Source: a virus. Taken from it: a stretch of DNA of 31,333 nucleotides. A program made the translations under genes and the position numbers. The notes under the pieces were generated by a model. The model did no database searches and was not told the origin of the DNA. It saw nothing but the letters and a program-made list of their open reading frames with translations. Location: IMG/VR virus record IMGVR_UViG_3300047550_007048; one strand, 5' to 3'. Shown here piece by piece: positions 10,726-24,230 of this stretch (positions are counted from its first letter, which is position 1; each line of letters opens with the position of its first letter).

Positions 10726-10800
10726 TGACCCAACCGGCACGAATCGAACATGCGATCTCCCCCTGGACGGGGTTGCTTTACCATTAAGCTACGGTGGCGG
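10726..10800 (-). pseudogene. degenerate tRNA-like sequence: good D-arm TAGCTTAATGGTAAAGCA, T-arm GCATG-TTCGATT-CGTGC, CCA-like anticodon loop; no CCA end and a mismatched acceptor
   Basis: Hand folding only. Confidence 0.3.
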
Positions 10801-12334: not shown

Positions 12335-12416
12335 TGGTGCTACGGGAGGGACTCGAACCCCCGGTGTTGTGTGCCTGCTTACAAGGCAGGTGCTGTCGCC
12401 GCTGAGCCACCGTAGC
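12335..12416 (-). tRNA. tRNA-Thr(TGT) with unusually long (11 nt) variable region, CCA encoded
   Basis: Acceptor GCTACGG/CCGTAGC. Anticodon arm CCTGC-CTTGTAA-GCAGG. T-arm GGGGG-TTCGAGT-CCCTC. Confidence 0.6.
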
Positions 12417-12438
12417 ATGTTTAGTCTACTCTATTTAT

Positions 12439-12513
12439 TGGTGGACCGTTGGAGAATCGAACTCCAGATTTCGCCACGCCAGGGCGATGTGATTCCACTT
12501 GCACTAACGGCCC
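12439..12513 (-). tRNA. tRNA-Ala(GGC), G3:U70, CCA encoded
   Basis: Acceptor GGGCCGT/ACGGTCC. Anticodon arm TCGCC-CTGGCGT-GGCGA. T-arm TGGAG-TTCGATT-CTCCA. Confidence 0.7.
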
Positions 12514-12522
12514 AATTAATCT

Positions 12523-12598
12523 TGGTGGAGCCTATCGGGATCGAACCGATGACATTTAGCTTGCAAAGCTAACGCTCTCCCAGCTGAGCTAAGACCCC
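12523..12598 (-). tRNA. tRNA-Ala(TGC), G3:U70, CCA encoded
   Basis: Acceptor GGGGTCT/AGGCTCC. D-arm GCTCAGCTGGGAGAGC. Anticodon arm TTAGC-TTTGCAA-GCTAA. Confidence 0.75.
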
Positions 12599-12639
12599 AT
12601 GTTCGTATATTAACGCAAATTCCTTGTTTGTCAATGGAA

Positions 12640-13822: not shown

Positions 13823-13964
<142 letters not shown>

Positions 13965-13975
13965 ATGTATCATAT

Positions 13976-14527
13976 TTAACGTATGTTTCGGAACTTTTCA
14001 AGAATTGATTTCATCTCGACCACGTTACCGTGGTCATTGGCGTCGATGCTGCGATCCATCCTGGTCTGCATCTTGGCACGCCTCTCTCCCATCGTCAGAT
14101 CAATGAGAGCGTTATTGAGTCCAAATCGATTATCAATCATCCTGGTGATCAGCCCGTTCGGCAGCAGTATGTCTCGCACGCTTTCAACGTGTCGATAAGC
14201 CGCTTCCGCATCCATGCCATGCTGGATCATTATTCCGATCGCGGCAGAGGTGCTGCGGCTAATGCCCTGGTGACAGTGTACCAGCAATCTATCCCCATCC
14301 TGCAGATCCTTAGAAAACTCCAGTATGGAGTCCAGATGATGCTCATTTGGCAGCACCCAGCTTTCCATCAGCTGGCTTTCGACGTCGTGGAGATGCAGAA
14401 CCAGATGATTTTCGCAGGAGAAGAGGATCTGTACCCCCGGGTCAACCATGCTTATGATGTGGGTGGGCCACCCGTTTTCTGCCCATCTCCCGGCCTCAAA
14501 AATGCCGCAAATCTTCAGCTCGAACAT
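13976..14527 (-). CDS. cysteine (CX5R) protein-tyrosine / dual-specificity-type phosphatase (183 aa)
   Basis: LVHCHQGISRSTSAAIGIM matches the HCxxGxxRS/T active-site motif. AGGAG SD upstream. Confidence 0.75.
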   Translation of the reverse strand: MFELKICGIFEAGRWAENGWPTHIISMVDPGVQILFSCENHLVLHLHDVESQLMESWVLPNEHHLDSILEFSKDLQDGDRLLVHCHQGISRSTSAAIGIMIQHGMDAEAAYRHVESVRDILLPNGLITRMIDNRFGLNNALIDLTMGERRAKMQTRMDRSIDANDHGNVVEMKSILEKFRNIR

Positions 14528-17680: not shown

Positions 17681-17757
17681 TGGAGCGGGTAGGGAGAGTC
17701 GAACTCCGCATTGTCAGCTTGGAAGGCTGCTGGACGCCCCTTGTCCTATCTACCCGC
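17681..17757 (-). tRNA. tRNA-Gly(TCC), CCA encoded
   Basis: Acceptor GCGGGTA/TACCCGC. D-stem GGAC/GTCC. Anticodon loop CTTCCAA. T-arm GGAG-TTCGACT-CTCC. Confidence 0.65.
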
Positions 17758-18082: not shown

Positions 18083-18232
18083 TGCCGCTCTAATTTTTTC
18101 TCGATGTTCCGGGGTCTTTGGCGTTCCTTTTAGCCTCTTTCGGCAGTTGCAAGACGCTGATAAAATCCGTCAATTATCATCTATCATACCGTTGATAGTC
18201 GGCGACATTGATCATGTTAAACAACAGGTGGC

Positions 18233-18310
18233 GCTCTCGGCAGGAGTCGAACCCGCATGTGTCCATTAGCTTTCTCCACGTTCGAAGCGTGGCGGCATAC
18301 GAGAGCAATA
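18233..18310 (-). pseudogene. aberrant tRNA-like gene: acceptor GCTCTCG/CGAGAGC and T-arm intact, discriminator G plus CCA, but an anticodon-like hairpin (CCACG-CTTCGAA-CGTGG, TCG) lies where the D-arm should be
   Basis: Shares its acceptor with tRNA-Arg(CCT) at 19285. Arms appear permuted. Confidence 0.3.
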
Positions 18311-19284: not shown

Positions 19285-19361
19285 TGGCGCTCTCGGAGGG
19301 ATTCGAACCCCCGACCGTCGGTTTAGGAAACCGCCTCTCTATCCAGCTGAGATACGAGAGC
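19285..19361 (-). tRNA. tRNA-Arg(CCT) with doubled 3' CCACCA
   Basis: Acceptor GCTCTCG/CGAGAGC. D-arm GCTCAGCTGGATAGAGA. Anticodon loop TTCCTAA. T-arm GGGGG-TTCGAAT-CCCTC. Followed by ..G-CCA-CCA. Confidence 0.65.
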
Positions 19362-19366
19362 AAACT

Positions 19367-19441
19367 TGGTTGGCCCACCCGGTTCTGCCCCGAGGTCTTC
19401 CGGTTATCAACCGGGCGCTCTCCTAATTGAGCTATGAGCCA
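19367..19441 (-). tRNA. tRNA-Ile(GAT)-like with non-canonical T-loop GGCAGAA
   Basis: Acceptor TGGCTCA/TGGGCCA. D-arm GCTCAATTAGGAGAGC. Anticodon loop TTGATAA. CCA encoded. Confidence 0.5.
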
Positions 19442-20227: not shown

Positions 20228-20304
20228 TGGTGCCTGCGAGTGGATTCGAACCACCAACATCCGTGCGCTGAACACGGCGACTCTACCAGTTGGCCTACGC
20301 AGGC
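20228..20304 (-). tRNA. tRNA-Leu(CAG)-like, class-I sized (5-nt variable region), Leu-type D-region GGCCAACTGGTAGAGTC, A73, CCA encoded
   Basis: Acceptor GCCTGCG/CGCAGGC. Anticodon arm CCGTG-TTCAGCG-CACGG. T-arm GGTGG-TTCGAAT-CCACT. Confidence 0.5.
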
Positions 20305-20315
20305 AAAATATGGAC

Positions 20316-20388
20316 CCGGAAGGTAGGTCGCCCTACTGTGTGGCCACACCGGACATGCTAGCTGTCCCATCCGGGATAATCCATGGGT
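20316..20388 (-). pseudogene. degenerate tRNA-like sequence (acceptor CCCGGAT/TTCCGGG, D-arm present, T-loop only 4 nt, no anticodon hairpin)
   Basis: Hand folding only. Confidence 0.25.
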
Positions 20389-20421
20389 CTTACGGTGCCA
20401 GGACACCCGCCCCTGTTAAGT

Positions 20422-20498
20422 TGGTGCATCCGGTGGGATTCGAACCCACACTGTGTGATCTCTCAAACCACTGACTCTACCAGTTGGCCTACGGATGC
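20422..20498 (-). tRNA. tRNA-Leu(GAG)-like, class-I sized, same Leu-type D-region, A73, CCA encoded
   Basis: Acceptor GCATCCG/CGGATGC perfect. Anticodon arm GTGGT-TTGAGAG-ATCAC. T-arm GTGGG-TTCGAAT-CCCAC. Confidence 0.55.
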
Positions 20499-20503
20499 AA
20501 AAA

Positions 20504-20578
20504 TGGTGGGTCCTGCAGGTAACGCTCCTGCCACCTCCTGCATGTCAAGCAGGCGTTCTGCTTCTGAACCAAGGACCC
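20504..20578 (-). tRNA. tRNA-Val(GAC) with non-canonical T-loop AGCGTTA, CCA encoded
   Basis: Acceptor GGGTCCT/AGGACCC. D-stem GTTC/GAAC. Anticodon arm CCTGC-TTGACAT-GCAGG. Confidence 0.55.
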
Positions 20579-20586
20579 GTTATGAT

Positions 20587-20662
20587 TGGTAGCCGCCCAG
20601 GGGATTGAACCCTGCAGGAACCTGGGTGTAAACCAGGCGCGTTCTCCAGCTCGCTCGACGGC
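20587..20662 (-). tRNA. tRNA-Val(TAC)-like with poorly paired acceptor stem, CCA encoded
   Basis: Anticodon arm CCTGG-TTTACAC-CCAGG. T-arm CAGGG-TTCAATC-CCCTG. Confidence 0.4.
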
Positions 20663-20673
20663 CGTATCTCGTT

Positions 20674-20750
20674 TGGTACCCACGGTGGGATTCGAACCCA
20701 CAACCTCCGGTTTCTAAAACCGTTACCTCTACCAGTTGGGCTACGCGGGC
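20674..20750 (-). tRNA. tRNA-Leu(TAG)-like, class-I sized, Leu-type D-region GCCCAACTGGTAGAGGT, A73, CCA encoded
   Basis: Acceptor GCCCGCG/CGTGGGT (two G-U pairs). Anticodon loop TTTAGAA. T-arm GTGGG-TTCGAAT-CCCAC. Confidence 0.55.
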
Positions 20751-21128: not shown

Positions 21129-21629
21129 TCAGGGACGGTTGGTCTTCCACCAACGGTTGATGGAATCCGCCCCAATCTCATCACACACCCCGACGAGCCG
21201 TCCGCCCATGCCGAGGATGCCATCGTAGTATCGGGCCAGCAGCATGTTTGGGCATGCCCGCGGGCGATCAGCTTTCAGCCACTCCACACCCTCGCTCAAC
21301 CTGTGCGTGCCATTGGCCTGCAACCACAGCGCCAGCGCGCTTGCCGTCGAGCGGCAGGCACCTGCGAAGCAATGCACCACCACGCGGGCATCCGTGGGCA
21401 GCGTTCGCCCGTGTGCCAGTATGGCTTCAGCATGCTCCATGGTTGGAGCGTAAAGCTTGCTGGGATCCTCCTCATCATCGAAGTAGATGGCGAAATGGTT
21501 GGCTGCCGGTATGCGCGGCGGGCGGAAGATCCTATCGCCCACGTCCAGCATGGTGACGAGGTGCGTGGCATCAAACCGCTTGGCGGTCCGCTTGACCTCG
21601 CTCTTGCCACAAACGGTAAACTCTGGCAC
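21129..21629 (-). CDS. cysteine (CX5R) phosphatase, paralog of the 13976..14527 gene (166 aa, GTG start)
   Basis: VVVHCFAGACRSTASALALW active-site motif. AGGAGA SD upstream of the GTG. Confidence 0.7.
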   Translation of the reverse strand: MPEFTVCGKSEVKRTAKRFDATHLVTMLDVGDRIFRPPRIPAANHFAIYFDDEEDPSKLYAPTMEHAEAILAHGRTLPTDARVVVHCFAGACRSTASALALWLQANGTHRLSEGVEWLKADRPRACPNMLLARYYDGILGMGGRLVGVCDEIGADSINRWWKTNRP

Positions 21630-21866: not shown

Positions 21867-21943
21867 TGGCTCCCGGAGTAGGAATTGAACCTACCTGATG
21901 AACAGATTAACAGTCTGCTGGCACACCTTGCGCCCATCCGGGA
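21867..21943 (-). tRNA. tRNA-Asn(GTT) second copy, CCA encoded; its 5' part overlaps the 3' end of the DUF559 endonuclease ORF
   Basis: Acceptor TCCCGGA/TCCGGGA. Anticodon arm GCAGA-CTGTTAA-TCTGT (identical to the 14628 copy). T-arm GTAGG-TTCAATT-CCTAC. Confidence 0.7.
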
Positions 21944-22527
21944 TTAAAATCAATGAACTCTTTCATCTGTTGGATGGAACCTTTTGCATCACTGCATATT
22001 TCTTTCCATCGCATGCGTAATATAGCGTAGCCTTCTGCGGCTAGCAACCCGTCTTTTGATTTATCTCGTTCTTTTTGATCCAAGAATCGATCATGCTGTT
22101 CGCCATCTATTTCGATGACACGTTTCTTATGCAACCATGCAAAATCTAGACTGAATCGATAGAATGGATGTTCCCTGACGTAATTTTTGTCATCGAACTC
22201 ATTTAATATAACCTGCATAAACCATTTTTCTGGCCAACTAGGTTGGTTATTCCACCGGCTTCTACCAATGTTCCATGCTCGCCCATCTGCATGGGCTTTT
22301 TTCATACTATTCGATCTTTGTTTATTCTGCTCTTTGGTAGTAACACGAGGGTATTTTACTGATGCTAGTTTAGTCGCATCGGATTTTGATCTGGTAATAA
22401 TCTTACCGTCTCTCACAGCTTTTAGGAAAGTAATATTAGACATCTTGAAATGCTTGATAACCTCTCTACTGGAGTGGTTATCATCATAATATTTTTGCAC
22501 TTCTATCCAGTTTCTGGTACGACTCAT
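21907..22527 (-). CDS. DUF559 / Vsr-like (restriction-endonuclease-fold) endonuclease-domain protein, probable mobile endonuclease (about 206 aa from ATG 22527; GTG at 22542 is an alternative)
   Basis: FSLDFAWLHKKRVIEIDGEQHDRFLDQKERDKSKDGLLAAEGYAILRMRWKEI matches the DUF559 core (D...E.DG..H). Low GC. GCTAAATATTGAT motif directly upstream of the ATG. Confidence 0.6.
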   Translation of the reverse strand: MSRTRNWIEVQKYYDDNHSSREVIKHFKMSNITFLKAVRDGKIITRSKSDATKLASVKYPRVTTKEQNKQRSNSMKKAHADGRAWNIGRSRWNNQPSWPEKWFMQVILNEFDDKNYVREHPFYRFSLDFAWLHKKRVIEIDGEQHDRFLDQKERDKSKDGLLAAEGYAILRMRWKEICSDAKGSIQQMKEFIDFNPGWAQGVPADC

Positions 22528-22540
22528 ATCAATATTTAGC
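22528..22540 (-). promoter_or_regulatory. GCTAAATATTGAT motif abutting the ATG of the DUF559 gene
   Basis: Motif family member. Confidence 0.45.
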
Positions 22541-22703
22541 ACAGTCAGATGCGTTTACCAATTCCGCCATCCAGGAATAAAACCCAAAGTCTGTGCCCTT
22601 TTGCCTCATACACCGAAGGAGTCTTGGCTGGCCGGACCGCCCAGTTGTTGTTCTTGTTGCGTGTGTTATAGCATGCACCGCAGTTGGTGTCAATGCCTTT
22701 CTT

Positions 22704-22788
22704 TGGAGCAGGTCGGGGGAATCGAACCCCATTGCCGTTAAGCGCCAGGTTGGAAGCCTGGTGACGGGCCCACCCGTCTACGACCTGC
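22704..22788 (-). tRNA. non-canonical tRNA-Sec-like (8-bp acceptor / 4-bp T-stem, 6-bp D-stem with 4-nt D-loop, 14-nt variable arm) tRNA with Gly anticodon TCC; U73, CCA encoded
   Basis: Acceptor GCAGGTCG/CGACCTGC. D-arm GACGGG-TGGG-CCCGTC. Anticodon arm CCAGG-CTTCCAA-CCTGG. T-arm GGGG-TTCGATT-CCCC. Confidence 0.5.
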
Positions 22789-22795
22789 ATGTAAC

Positions 22796-22881
22796 TGGAG
22801 CGGGATGGGGGAATCGAACCCCGGTGCTGATTAGGCTCCAGACTGGCAATCTGGTGACAAGCCCACTTGTCCACACCCCGC
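22796..22881 (-). tRNA. second tRNA-Sec-like (8/4, 6-bp D-stem with 4-nt loop, 15-nt variable arm) tRNA with Gly anticodon GCC; U73, CCA encoded; 5' half overlapped by the GIY-YIG ORF 3' end
   Basis: Acceptor GCGGGGTG/CATCCCGC. D-arm GACAAG-TGGG-CTTGTC. Anticodon arm CCAGA-TTGCCAG-TCTGG. T-arm GGGG-TTCGATT-CCCC. Confidence 0.5.
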
Positions 22882-23694
22882 GCTATTCTTTGCGATATAG
22901 CCACGTTTTAGACCATTATCAAAAACATGCCGATCTATACCATATTTAGTCAATATGTCTCGTTTTTTCATGCCAGCATCGATATCGAGTTGGATACCGT
23001 TCCAGTCTCTGGCTGGTTTTTTACGTTTGCCAGAATCCCATGCTGATTTATTTGCAGAGGAGATTTTATCCCTGGTTTCATTTGAAACGATTTTTGGTTT
23101 CTTCATCCTAGCAGCATTCATTCGCCGTTGCCGTGAAGCCCGTTCCTCATCAGACAAGACCTTGTTTTTCAACGTTTCAGAAATCTTTGCCTTGTGCTCT
23201 GGCGAAAGCTTTCTGGAGGACAATGACTTCCTCATTTTATCCTTTACACCAGGGCGCGATGCCATTGGAGATTTTAGCAATCGCTGCCTTGATGCTTCTT
23301 TTATTTCCGGCGTGGCTTTTCCACGGACAGAATTGCTGATTCTTTCTTTTGTCTCGGTTGAATGTTTATAACCGGGTCTCTTGTTTTTACCAGTAGAATT
23401 GATGTAATCAAATCCACCTTTTCCACCAATCTTGATGTTATATGTGTTAGATCTTTGGACAAATGCCTCGTTGACAATCTCTGCTTCTTTCCGAAACATG
23501 TCATCAGACGTTTCAAAGTATTCTAGGATTGTTTTCGTGAATTTTTCAATTCCGTGTTTTTGGATAGCAGCATTTAGGACCTTACCGGATCCCATGTAAC
23601 CATCATTGATGTCATCGGTGATATGCACACCGATGTAAATCTTGCCATTTATGTGATTGGTGATCTGATATAGGTAGCGATAAATCTGCTTCAT
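22831..23694 (-). CDS. GIY-YIG homing endonuclease with NUMOD repeats and a C-terminal DNA-binding domain (287 aa)
   Basis: IYRYLYQITNHINGKIYIGV...GSGK is the GIY-YIG core. The C-terminus is homologous to the 17771..18082 ORF. Low GC. GTATAAATAGTCC motif abuts the ATG. Confidence 0.8.
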   Translation of the reverse strand: MKQIYRYLYQITNHINGKIYIGVHITDDINDGYMGSGKVLNAAIQKHGIEKFTKTILEYFETSDDMFRKEAEIVNEAFVQRSNTYNIKIGGKGGFDYINSTGKNKRPGYKHSTETKERISNSVRGKATPEIKEASRQRLLKSPMASRPGVKDKMRKSLSSRKLSPEHKAKISETLKNKVLSDEERASRQRRMNAARMKKPKIVSNETRDKISSANKSAWDSGKRKKPARDWNGIQLDIDAGMKKRDILTKYGIDRHVFDNGLKRGYIAKNSAGCGQVGLSPDCQSGA

Positions 23695-23954: not shown

Positions 23955-24038
23955 TGGAGGTCCGGGTGGGACTCGAACCCACGGTGTTTGCATAGCTGAT
24001 TAAGAGTCAGCCCCCTTCGCCACTCGGGACACCGGACC
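23955..24038 (-). tRNA. class-II (Ser-like D-arm CCCGAGTGGCGAAGGG, 12-nt variable arm) tRNA carrying Lys anticodon CTT; U73, CCA encoded
   Basis: Acceptor GGTCCGG/CCGGACC perfect. Anticodon arm GCTGA-CTCTTAA-TCAGC perfect. T-arm GTGGG-TTCGAGT-CCCAC. Confidence 0.5.
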
Positions 24039-24155: not shown

Positions 24156-24230
24156 TGGTGGACCGGGTGAGGATCGAACTCACCGATGCCGGATTAAGAG
24201 CCCAGCTGACCCACCAGGGTGCTCCGGTCC
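24156..24230 (-). tRNA. tRNA-Lys(CTT), class I, CCA encoded
   Basis: Acceptor GGACCGG/CCGGTCC. Anticodon arm CTGGG-CTCTTAA-TCCGG (two G-U pairs). T-arm GTGAG-TTCGATC-CTCAC. Confidence 0.6.

Follow-up and report, generated by a model that had tools for sequence, protein, structure and literature searches.

Three short-armed tRNA-Leu genes in a viral tRNA array are probably working type I leucine tRNAs

Introduction

Canonical class II tRNA-Leu carries a long variable arm, a stem-loop of more than 10 nucleotides (nt). Three genes between positions 20228 and 20750 of the IMG/VR virus record IMGVR_UViG_3300047550_007048 combine leucine anticodons with a variable region of only 5 nt, which raises the question of whether such short-armed genes make leucine tRNAs that decode CUN codons (N, any nucleotide) or tRNAs that carry another amino acid. 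We analyzed these genes within the whole stretch of 31,333 nt, hereafter the window. An earlier note on this DNA had proposed that they are either streamlined leucine tRNAs or mischarging tRNAs and had called them unusual for a bacterial system in both cases. Comparison with phage, viral and bacterial sequences makes it likely that the three genes are working CUN-decoding type I leucine tRNAs, that is, tRNA-Leu with a short variable loop.

Structure of the three tRNA-Leu genes

Both ARAGORN and the general tRNA model of Rfam (RF00005, gathering score 29 bits) called three short-armed tRNA-Leu genes, all on the minus strand:

20750-20674, minus strand: tRNA-Leu(UAG), type I; anticodon 20716-20714; variable region AGGUU, 20706-20702
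20498-20422, minus strand: tRNA-Leu(GAG), type I; anticodon 20464-20462; variable region ACAGU, 20454-20450
20304-20228, minus strand: tRNA-Leu(CAG), type I; anticodon 20270-20268; variable region AUGUU, 20260-20256

The full Rfam model (1-71) was covered by all three, with scores of 57.7 bits (E = 3.7e-10) for Leu(UAG), 49.5 bits (E = 6.5e-8) for Leu(GAG) and 42.3 bits (E = 6.6e-6), the weakest of the three, for Leu(CAG). Each gene measures 74 nt plus an encoded CCA, its 5-nt variable region forms no stem, and the long variable arm of class II tRNA-Leu is absent throughout. The acceptor, anticodon and T stems have 7, 5 and 5 bp, the T loop reads UUCGAAU, and a 7-nt anticodon loop with U33 presents CAG, GAG or UAG at positions 34-36. 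Thus, the class I length and the acceptor, anticodon and T arms described earlier match the cloverleaves drawn here. Every stem is fully paired in Leu(GAG), which has A37, and every stem is paired in Leu(CAG), with G49.U65; Leu(UAG) has G1.U72, G5.U69 and A37. The 3:70 pairs of the three genes are C-G, A-U and C-G, with neither G3:U70 nor G73 in any of them.

The discriminator A73 and the U8:A14 tertiary pair occur in all three genes. The D stem has 3 bp (10-25, 11-24 and 12-23) followed by a C13/A22 mismatch, and the D loop reads A14 A15 C16 U17 G18 G19 U20 A20a G21, of the AAYUGGUAG type. This 3-bp register is favored because the three genes covary there (G11.U24 versus C11-G24); a 4-bp register was rejected, as two of its pairs are broken. 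With U at position 48, an A15:U48 Levitt pair is possible. The D arm has the architecture of bacterial class II tRNA-Leu as in Escherichia coli. These features, together with the ARAGORN and Rfam calls, confirm three leucine-anticodon tRNAs with A73, a Leu-type D region and a 5-nt variable region. The D region had also been described as common to the three genes; this holds for the CAG and GAG genes, both GGCCAACTGGTAGAG, and fails for the UAG gene, which has GCCCAACTGGTAGAG and a D stem reading GCCC rather than GGCC.

A family of type I tRNA-Leu in phages and bacteria

When a collection of 50,697 phage records was searched by blastn with the Leu(GAG) gene, 43 records matched and every annotated match was a tRNA-Leu, in phages of Pseudomonas, Bacillus, Lactobacillus and Gordonia. 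A longer query also matched Sinorhizobium phage Phosso. The cultured carriers comprise Pseudomonas phages PE09, phiPsa374 and vB_PseuGesM_254, Bacillus phages TsarBomba, BCP78 and vB_BcoS-136, Lactobacillus phage Iacchus and Gordonia phage Phendrix in addition to Phosso. In seven cultured-phage loci, ARAGORN called eleven short Leu tRNAs (75-78 nt) as against only two long ones, each of them a UAA reader, and the tRNA-Ser and tRNA-Tyr genes of the same arrays measured 84-94 nt.

Viral and bacterial sequences were then scanned with the pattern CCAAYTGGYAGAG-N9-T-NNN-N{10,40}-GGTTCGAATCC, which describes the D arm and the T loop and leaves the anticodon free. The IMG/VR scan matched at least 120 stretches and the bacterial scan, with one genome per species, at least 120 loci; more matches exist in both, and the counts given here and below are among the matches listed. 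All 126 in-register IMG/VR matches carried a leucine anticodon (UAA 41, CAA 39, UAG 28, CAG 7, GAG 7, AAG 4), and no in-register match listed had the Phe anticodons GAA or AAA, one base away from Leu, or any other non-Leu anticodon. The six exceptions were tRNAs with a 4-bp D stem that had been read one base out of register. In bacterial genomes, 122 of the 123 matches listed had a leucine anticodon. A gap equivalent to a 5-nt variable region was found in 99/132 viral and 116/123 bacterial matches. The strict D-arm signature itself was dropped as evidence of isotype, because in the 4-bp-stem register it also fits a few Gln and Arg tRNAs and because it had served to select the loci.

About 96 of the 120 bacterial loci (about 80%, counted from record titles) belong to Actinomycetota, including Mycobacterium, Nocardia, Pseudonocardia, Micromonospora, Corynebacterium, Gordonia and Bifidobacteriaceae. 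At 89/120 loci the gene was the sole tRNA in its stretch (up to 8 kb) and therefore resembles an ordinary gene of the chromosome; most of the solitary copies have the anticodon UAA or CAA. Some ten further loci are arrays of 11-29 tRNAs in which CAG, GAG and UAG predominate, as in the window. Types I and II tRNA-Leu coexist in 26 collected loci. The window genes are 77-83% identical to phage and actinobacterial members and 93-97% identical to those of two close relatives in IMG/VR, L015 (a 452,799-bp contig) and L033 (a 13.3-kb contig).

Selection on structure

Covariation was tested on a gapless alignment of 148 distinct family members against column shuffles (n=500). Stem cells were paired in 98.7% of cases versus 61.8% in shuffles, none of the 500 shuffles reaching the observed value, and the covariation score was 0.954 versus 0.204. 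Sliding the partners by 1-3 columns reduced pairing to 35-49%, and changes on both sides were seen in 19/20 pairs. D-stem cells were 99.8% paired across the family, and the D-stem pairs covary, for example G11.U24 versus C11-G24. The orthologues in the close relatives agree with this picture. The Leu(GAG) copy of L015 is 97.4% identical, and its sole difference is the compensatory change G28-C42 to A28-U42. The Leu(UAG) copy of L033 is 93.5% identical, and its 5 differences are all structure-preserving, with C-G to U-A at 29/41, G-C to C-G at 51/63 and G.U to G-C at position 69. These comparisons indicate recent purifying selection on the GAG and UAG genes.

Leucine identity and proposed function

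Family members carry A73 in 130/130 cases and U48 in 129/130, neither of which is imposed by the scan pattern; U33 is present in 129/130. T8 and A14 are invariant in the alignment, A14 being fixed by the pattern. A73, U8:A14, A15/U48 and the Leu-type D arm are among the published determinants for leucyl-tRNA synthetase (LeuRS) of E. coli, Aquifex and Streptomyces (PMC6614811, PMC9976931). According to established identity rules, only LeuRS and the seryl- and alanyl-tRNA synthetases ignore the anticodon in bacteria, and all other bacterial synthetases need anticodon bases that NAG does not supply (PMC9976931). This type of body goes with none but the six leucine anticodons in about 250 independent matches among those listed; as one body serves both the UUR (R, purine) and the CUN boxes, which share only leucine, its identity should be leucine. 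We infer leucine acceptance of the window genes from their identity elements and from this exclusive association, which, like gene structure, family membership, covariation and purifying selection, was directly observed.

Within the array, the nearest neighbors of each Leu gene are the other two (73-78% identity). The best identity to a non-Leu tRNA is 70-73% (Arg), against a cross-isotype background within the window with a median best of 67% and a maximum of 73%. Because the three are nearest to each other and their cross-isotype identity stays within the background, they do not appear to be recent anticodon-shift copies.

For the path from gene to decoding we infer the following steps. The Leu genes are probably transcribed together with their neighbors, since all genes of the array are on the same strand and the spacers around GAG-Val-Val-UAG measure 5-10 nt; a promoter and terminator scan of 19-22 kb returned nothing above shuffled expectation. 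Host RNase P and 3' processing enzymes would cut out the tRNAs, whose CCA is already encoded. A LeuRS, most likely that of the host, would then charge them with leucine by recognizing A73, U8:A14, A15:U48 and the Leu-type D arm (3-bp stem, placement of G18G19, 20a), elements that would require neither a long variable arm nor the anticodon. The CAG tRNA would read CUG, the GAG tRNA CUC and CUU, and the UAG tRNA CUA and CUG. Leucine codons in the eight confident open reading frames (ORFs) of the window are CTG 121, CTC 69, CTA 22, CTT 21, TTG 38 and TTA 5, so that CUN makes up 233 of 276 (84%).

Comparison with known systems

The closest biochemical precedent is the type I tRNALeu(CAA) of Streptomyces coelicolor, which has the 5-nt loop ACAGC and is leucylated by S. 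coelicolor LeuRS (ScoLeuRS; Fan et al. 2019, Nucleic Acids Research, PMC6614811). The kcat/Km of ScoLeuRS on it is about 44% of the value for type II tRNA, and both U8:A14 and the 5-nt loop length are required for charging (PMC6614811). There, type I coexists with class II tRNA-Leu and a single LeuRS charges both. The window genes share the 5-nt loop (ACAGU in the GAG gene), A73, U8:A14 and G18G19 with it, and it would presumably belong to exactly the same sequence family. In contrast to the S. coelicolor gene, which is chromosomal and essential, reads UUG and has C48, they are phage-borne CUN readers with U48 facing A15. This precedent, the LeuRS determinants and the exclusively leucine anticodons of the relatives support the earlier suggestion of a streamlined leucine tRNA.

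Short-loop tRNALeu(UAG) has also been mentioned in passing for the tRNA clusters of Mycobacterium mucogenicum and M. phocaicum, again in a dense accessory array and with a long-arm isoacceptor elsewhere in the genome (PMC6582537). Those clusters are bacterial and hold 11-14 genes, unlike the phage array of about 47 in the window. The literature on M. tuberculosis singles out tRNA-Leu-2, -3 and -5 as having a long variable loop, which suggests, in a paper that does not say so directly, that its other Leu isoacceptors lack one. The 74-78-nt tRNA-Leu genes of cultured phages are 77-83% identical to the window genes, agree with them in D arm, T arm, A73 and the 5-nt length of the variable region, and likewise lie in tRNA arrays; they differ in belonging to other phage lineages and hosts and in being mostly UAG or CAA. 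A short-arm CAG isoacceptor was found in none of the seven cultured-phage loci, and none of these loci had all three CUN isoacceptors as type I.

Compared with class II tRNA-Leu, the window genes retain A73, U8:A14, A15:U48, the 3-bp D stem with the 13/22 mismatch and the AAYUGGUAG loop with 20a, and LeuRS need not read the anticodon in either case. They differ in the missing long variable stem-loop (>10 nt) and in having A or C at position 37. The variable loop is short in animal mitochondrial type I tRNA-Leu too, and A73 and A14 serve there as identity elements (PMC9976931). Whereas the mitochondrial tRNAs have relaxed D and T loops and a dedicated mitochondrial LeuRS, the elbows of the window genes are canonical (G18G19, UUCGAAU).

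Points against the leucine reading and alternative explanations

Several observations weigh against the view that all three genes are working leucine tRNAs. Position 37 of Leu(CAG), at window position 20267 and adjoining the anticodon, is C, which is highly unusual, as a purine occupies this position in nearly every case; no other of the 227 collected short Leu tRNAs has C37. The GAG and UAG genes have A37 and not the G37 (m1G37), following G36, that is typical of bacterial CUN-reading tRNA-Leu. A37 predominates among the collected short Leu tRNAs, with 41 A versus 17 G in the UAG readers; that A37 is a phage-specific trait was rejected, the same A/G mix being found in bacterial solitary and array copies. 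Leu(UAG) has an A27/G43 mismatch at the top of its anticodon stem. Single-sequence folding recovered the acceptor and T arms of the Leu genes and not the whole cloverleaf, with z-scores of -1.1 to -2.6. The agreement between CUN codons and conserved leucine positions was mixed, at about 20 informative sites in one alignment of the epimerase with PDB sequences, too small a sample. Finally, the type I tRNA-Leu of S. coelicolor was left uncharged by E. coli LeuRS, and the ability to charge it was mapped to the leucine-specific domain of ScoLeuRS (PMC6614811), so that charging depends on the lineage of the LeuRS.

Because of C37, Leu(CAG) may be impaired, and this copy may work poorly; C37 may instead reflect something special. 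No close orthologue of Leu(CAG) was found, the best match being 81% identical and located in an Asanoa tRNA array. In L015, the slot adjoining Leu(GAG) holds an 85-nt class II Leu(CAG). As this swap shows, one and the same phage lineage uses both types, presumably with the same LeuRS. The missing orthologue, the C37, the low Rfam score (42.3 bits) and the class II gene in the neighboring slot of L015 all speak for decay of the CAG gene, as do the degenerate tRNA-like sequences elsewhere in the array (for example 18306-18232 and 10798-10729), which would make it a junk-tolerant one. Nevertheless, the stems of all three genes are intact in the ARAGORN calls, GAG and UAG differ from their orthologues by structure-preserving changes only, and covariation in the family is very strong. 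We therefore rate decayed, non-functional copies as highly improbable for the group as a whole and very unlikely for GAG and UAG, and grant decay a small but appreciable chance for CAG alone.

A class I body of another amino acid equipped with leucine anticodons, by which CUN would be mischarged or recoded, would account for a length that is atypical of textbook bacterial tRNA-Leu. Chimeric tRNAs of this sort exist (PMC8450103), and other tRNAs of the array have a body type that does not fit their anticodon. The three Leu genes, however, are closest to each other and not to another isotype, and in more than 240 independent matches among those listed it is the six Leu anticodons alone that accompany their body. 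A73 is invariant, and the genes lack the G3:U70 of tRNA-Ala as well as the G73 and long arm of tRNA-Ser. The remaining synthetases read anticodon bases that NAG does not offer (PMC9976931), and type I tRNA-Leu is leucylated in vitro (PMC6614811). The mischarging tRNA proposed in the earlier note is thus unsupported, and we consider it exceedingly unlikely.

Two further explanations accept leucine as the cargo. If the host LeuRS were unable to charge these tRNAs, a LeuRS or an accessory factor might be encoded elsewhere in a huge phage genome. The failure of E. coli LeuRS on type I tRNA-Leu and the deciding role of the leucine-specific domain (PMC6614811) fit this idea, and the relatives, at 450-735 kb, fall into a size class of huge phages for which a 2020 study in Nature reportedly described aminoacyl-tRNA synthetase genes. 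Against it, scans of the 20 larger window ORFs with Pfam and PHROGs revealed no synthetase gene, and phages of about 95-160 kb carry type I tRNA-Leu too; we regard this explanation as quite improbable. Alternatively, the short arm might let phage tRNA-Leu evade tRNA-directed enzymes that use the arm as a cleavage site or anchor. LeuRS would still charge the armless tRNA, arm-recognizing immune nucleases or nucleotidyltransferases could not act on it, and the phage would keep translating while class II tRNAs of the host are attacked; the array with its SegB-like homing endonucleases would then be a defense-resistant replacement translation kit. Phages of Pseudomonas, Bacillus, Lactobacillus and Sinorhizobium, hosts whose own tRNA-Leu is class II, do carry short-arm tRNA-Leu, and genes for SegB-like GIY-YIG homing endonucleases lie inside the window array. 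Septu and retron-Eco7 act on the variable arm of tRNA-Tyr, and MenT3 on that of tRNA-Ser; we know of no defense system that targets the variable arm of tRNA-Leu, which counts against evasion. Moreover, type I tRNA-Leu is an ordinary solitary gene in the scanned Actinomycetota contigs, where no phage logic applies, tRNA-Ser and tRNA-Tyr keep their long arms in the same phage arrays, and types I and II coexist in the 26 loci mentioned above. Evasion is accordingly doubtful, and working CUN-decoding leucine tRNAs remain the preferred reading.

The tRNA array and its genome

The minus strand of the window carries all 42 tRNA genes that ARAGORN found, and Rfam added five further matches to the tRNA model, of which His(GUG) and Ile(GAU) are readable and the other three aberrant or degenerate, for an array total of about 47. 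Neither a class II tRNA-Leu nor a UUR-reading tRNA-Leu was found anywhere in the window by ARAGORN and Rfam. The tRNA-Tyr and tRNA-Ser of the array are class II, as in bacteria, and the translation system served is therefore bacterial. The span 20228-20750 had been described as three tRNA-Leu genes; all three are present, and two tRNA-Val genes lie inside it as well, in a GAG-Val-Val-UAG block around which the spacers measure just 5-10 nt. These and the other features of the window mentioned below are:

20578-20504, minus strand: tRNA-Val(GAC), inside the span of the Leu genes
20663-20587, minus strand: tRNA-Val(UAC), inside the span of the Leu genes
1-2505, minus strand: major-vault-protein-like protein of 834 amino acids, with shoulder and repeat domains
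8154-8987, plus strand, and 22831-23694, minus strand: GIY-YIG SegE/SegB-like NUMOD3 genes embedded in the tRNA array
21907-22542, minus strand: DUF559 gene embedded in the tRNA array
13976-14527, minus strand, and 21129-21629, minus strand: dual-specificity-phosphatase-like ORFs between tRNA genes

According to Pfam and PHROGs, the window encodes a glycosyl-/methyltransferase fusion, a nucleotide-sugar epimerase, a radical SAM protein and a DnaQ-like exonuclease that matches jumbo phages such as PA5oct, besides three endonucleases (two GIY-YIG/NUMOD3 homing endonucleases and one DUF559) and two dual-specificity-phosphatase-like proteins. The vault-like protein had only three matches in the phage collection, all of them uncultured; two of these records measure 735,411 bp and share the same hit coordinates, and the third measures 462,018 bp, with 38% identity over 98% of the length. 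This protein set, including the vault-like protein, points to an uncultivated huge phage as the source of the window. Megablast of 25 kb against the phage collection gave only an 82-87-nt match at tRNA-Ala(UGC) (12517-12603); as no near-identical genome was found among the 50,697 records, the phage is absent from the cultured collection.

The G+C content dips to 0.47 and 0.45 at the endonuclease genes 8154-8987 and 22831-23694, compared with about 0.55 elsewhere, as expected for mobile insertions; segB likewise lies in the tRNA region of T-even phages. For the phosphatase-like ORFs, the Pfam DSPc model gave 38.8 bits for 13976-14527, above the cut-off of 33.5, and 26.2 bits for 21129-21629, below it. 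Action on RNA ends is conceivable for them.

Other unusual tRNAs in the array and its relatives

Two tRNAs with the Gly anticodons UCC (22704-22788, minus strand) and GCC (22796-22881, minus strand) have a selenocysteine-tRNA-like build, with an acceptor stem of 8-9 bp, a D stem of 6 bp with a 4-nt loop, a T stem of 4 bp, a variable region of about 13 nt, U73, G1-C72 and C2-G71. The tRNA at 22704-22788 scores 53.7 bits and passes the gathering score of 47 of the Rfam tRNA-Sec model, and a normal class I Gly(UCC) is also present at 17681-17757. Long-arm 'Gly' tRNAs beside short-arm Leu tRNAs may surprise more than the Leu genes do. An 84-nt tRNA with the Lys(CUU) anticodon (23955-24038, minus strand) combines a D arm resembling those of Tyr and Ser tRNAs (CCCGAGUGGCGAAGGG) with U73 and a variable region of 13 nt, and a normal 75-nt Lys(CUU) lies at 24156-24230.

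Val(GAC) (20504-20578, minus strand) and Met(CAU) (26672-26745, minus strand) share the odd T arm GCAGG-AGCGUUA-CCUGC, which has no U54-U55-C56, and the D loop of Val(GAC) also lacks G18G19; these features imply a non-canonical elbow. His(GUG), with G-1 and C73 (26936-27008, minus strand), and Ile(GAU) (19370-19441, minus strand) were missed by ARAGORN and found by Rfam, and in both of them the T loop is unusual, with GCAGAAC in place of UUCGAAU. A Ser-like class II tRNA at 13827-13964 (minus strand) has G73, a long variable arm and an insert of about 55 nt in the anticodon loop; the insert, not long enough to be a group I intron, contains a T-arm-like hairpin. The degenerate tRNA-like sequences at 18232-18306 and 10729-10798 (both minus strand) are probably decayed copies; the former has the same acceptor stem as Arg(CCU) (19285-19361) and a scrambled interior. 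The tmRNA model gave a weak, fragmentary match at 26114-26235 (minus strand; 25.4 bits, gathering score 47), between tRNA genes. In the relative L033, two tRNAs with the amber-suppressor anticodon CUA lie at 435-508 and 12366-12441, one of them directly after Leu(UAG), which hints at stop-codon recoding in that relative; no CUA-anticodon tRNA was found in the window.

Discussion

Type I tRNA-Leu is a known kind of tRNA, and dozens of GenBank phage records annotate such genes, as a matter of routine also in cultured phages; no paper dedicated to phage short-arm tRNA-Leu was found in full-text searches, which yielded only the Streptomyces work, a single sentence about the mycobacterial clusters and articles on defense systems that target variable loops. 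Fan et al. call type I tRNA-Leu rare (PMC6614811). With at least 120 viral stretches and at least 120 bacterial loci matched, its breadth appears to be under-appreciated. To call the three window genes unusual for a bacterial system was an overstatement, considering their huge-phage source, the cultured-phage annotations, the common solitary genes of Actinomycetota and the mycobacterial tRNA clusters (PMC6582537).

The three genes would thus be ordinary parts of the tRNA complement of a huge phage, with no sign of recoding. The rule that every bacterial tRNA-Leu belongs to class II does not hold in a large share of Actinomycetota or in many phages, and type I genes should be expected by annotation pipelines and in models of isotype. 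Since E. coli LeuRS failed on the one type I tRNA-Leu tested, such tRNAs might restrict, or report, the host range of the phages that carry them, and the armless body might matter for resistance to tRNA-targeting defense systems.

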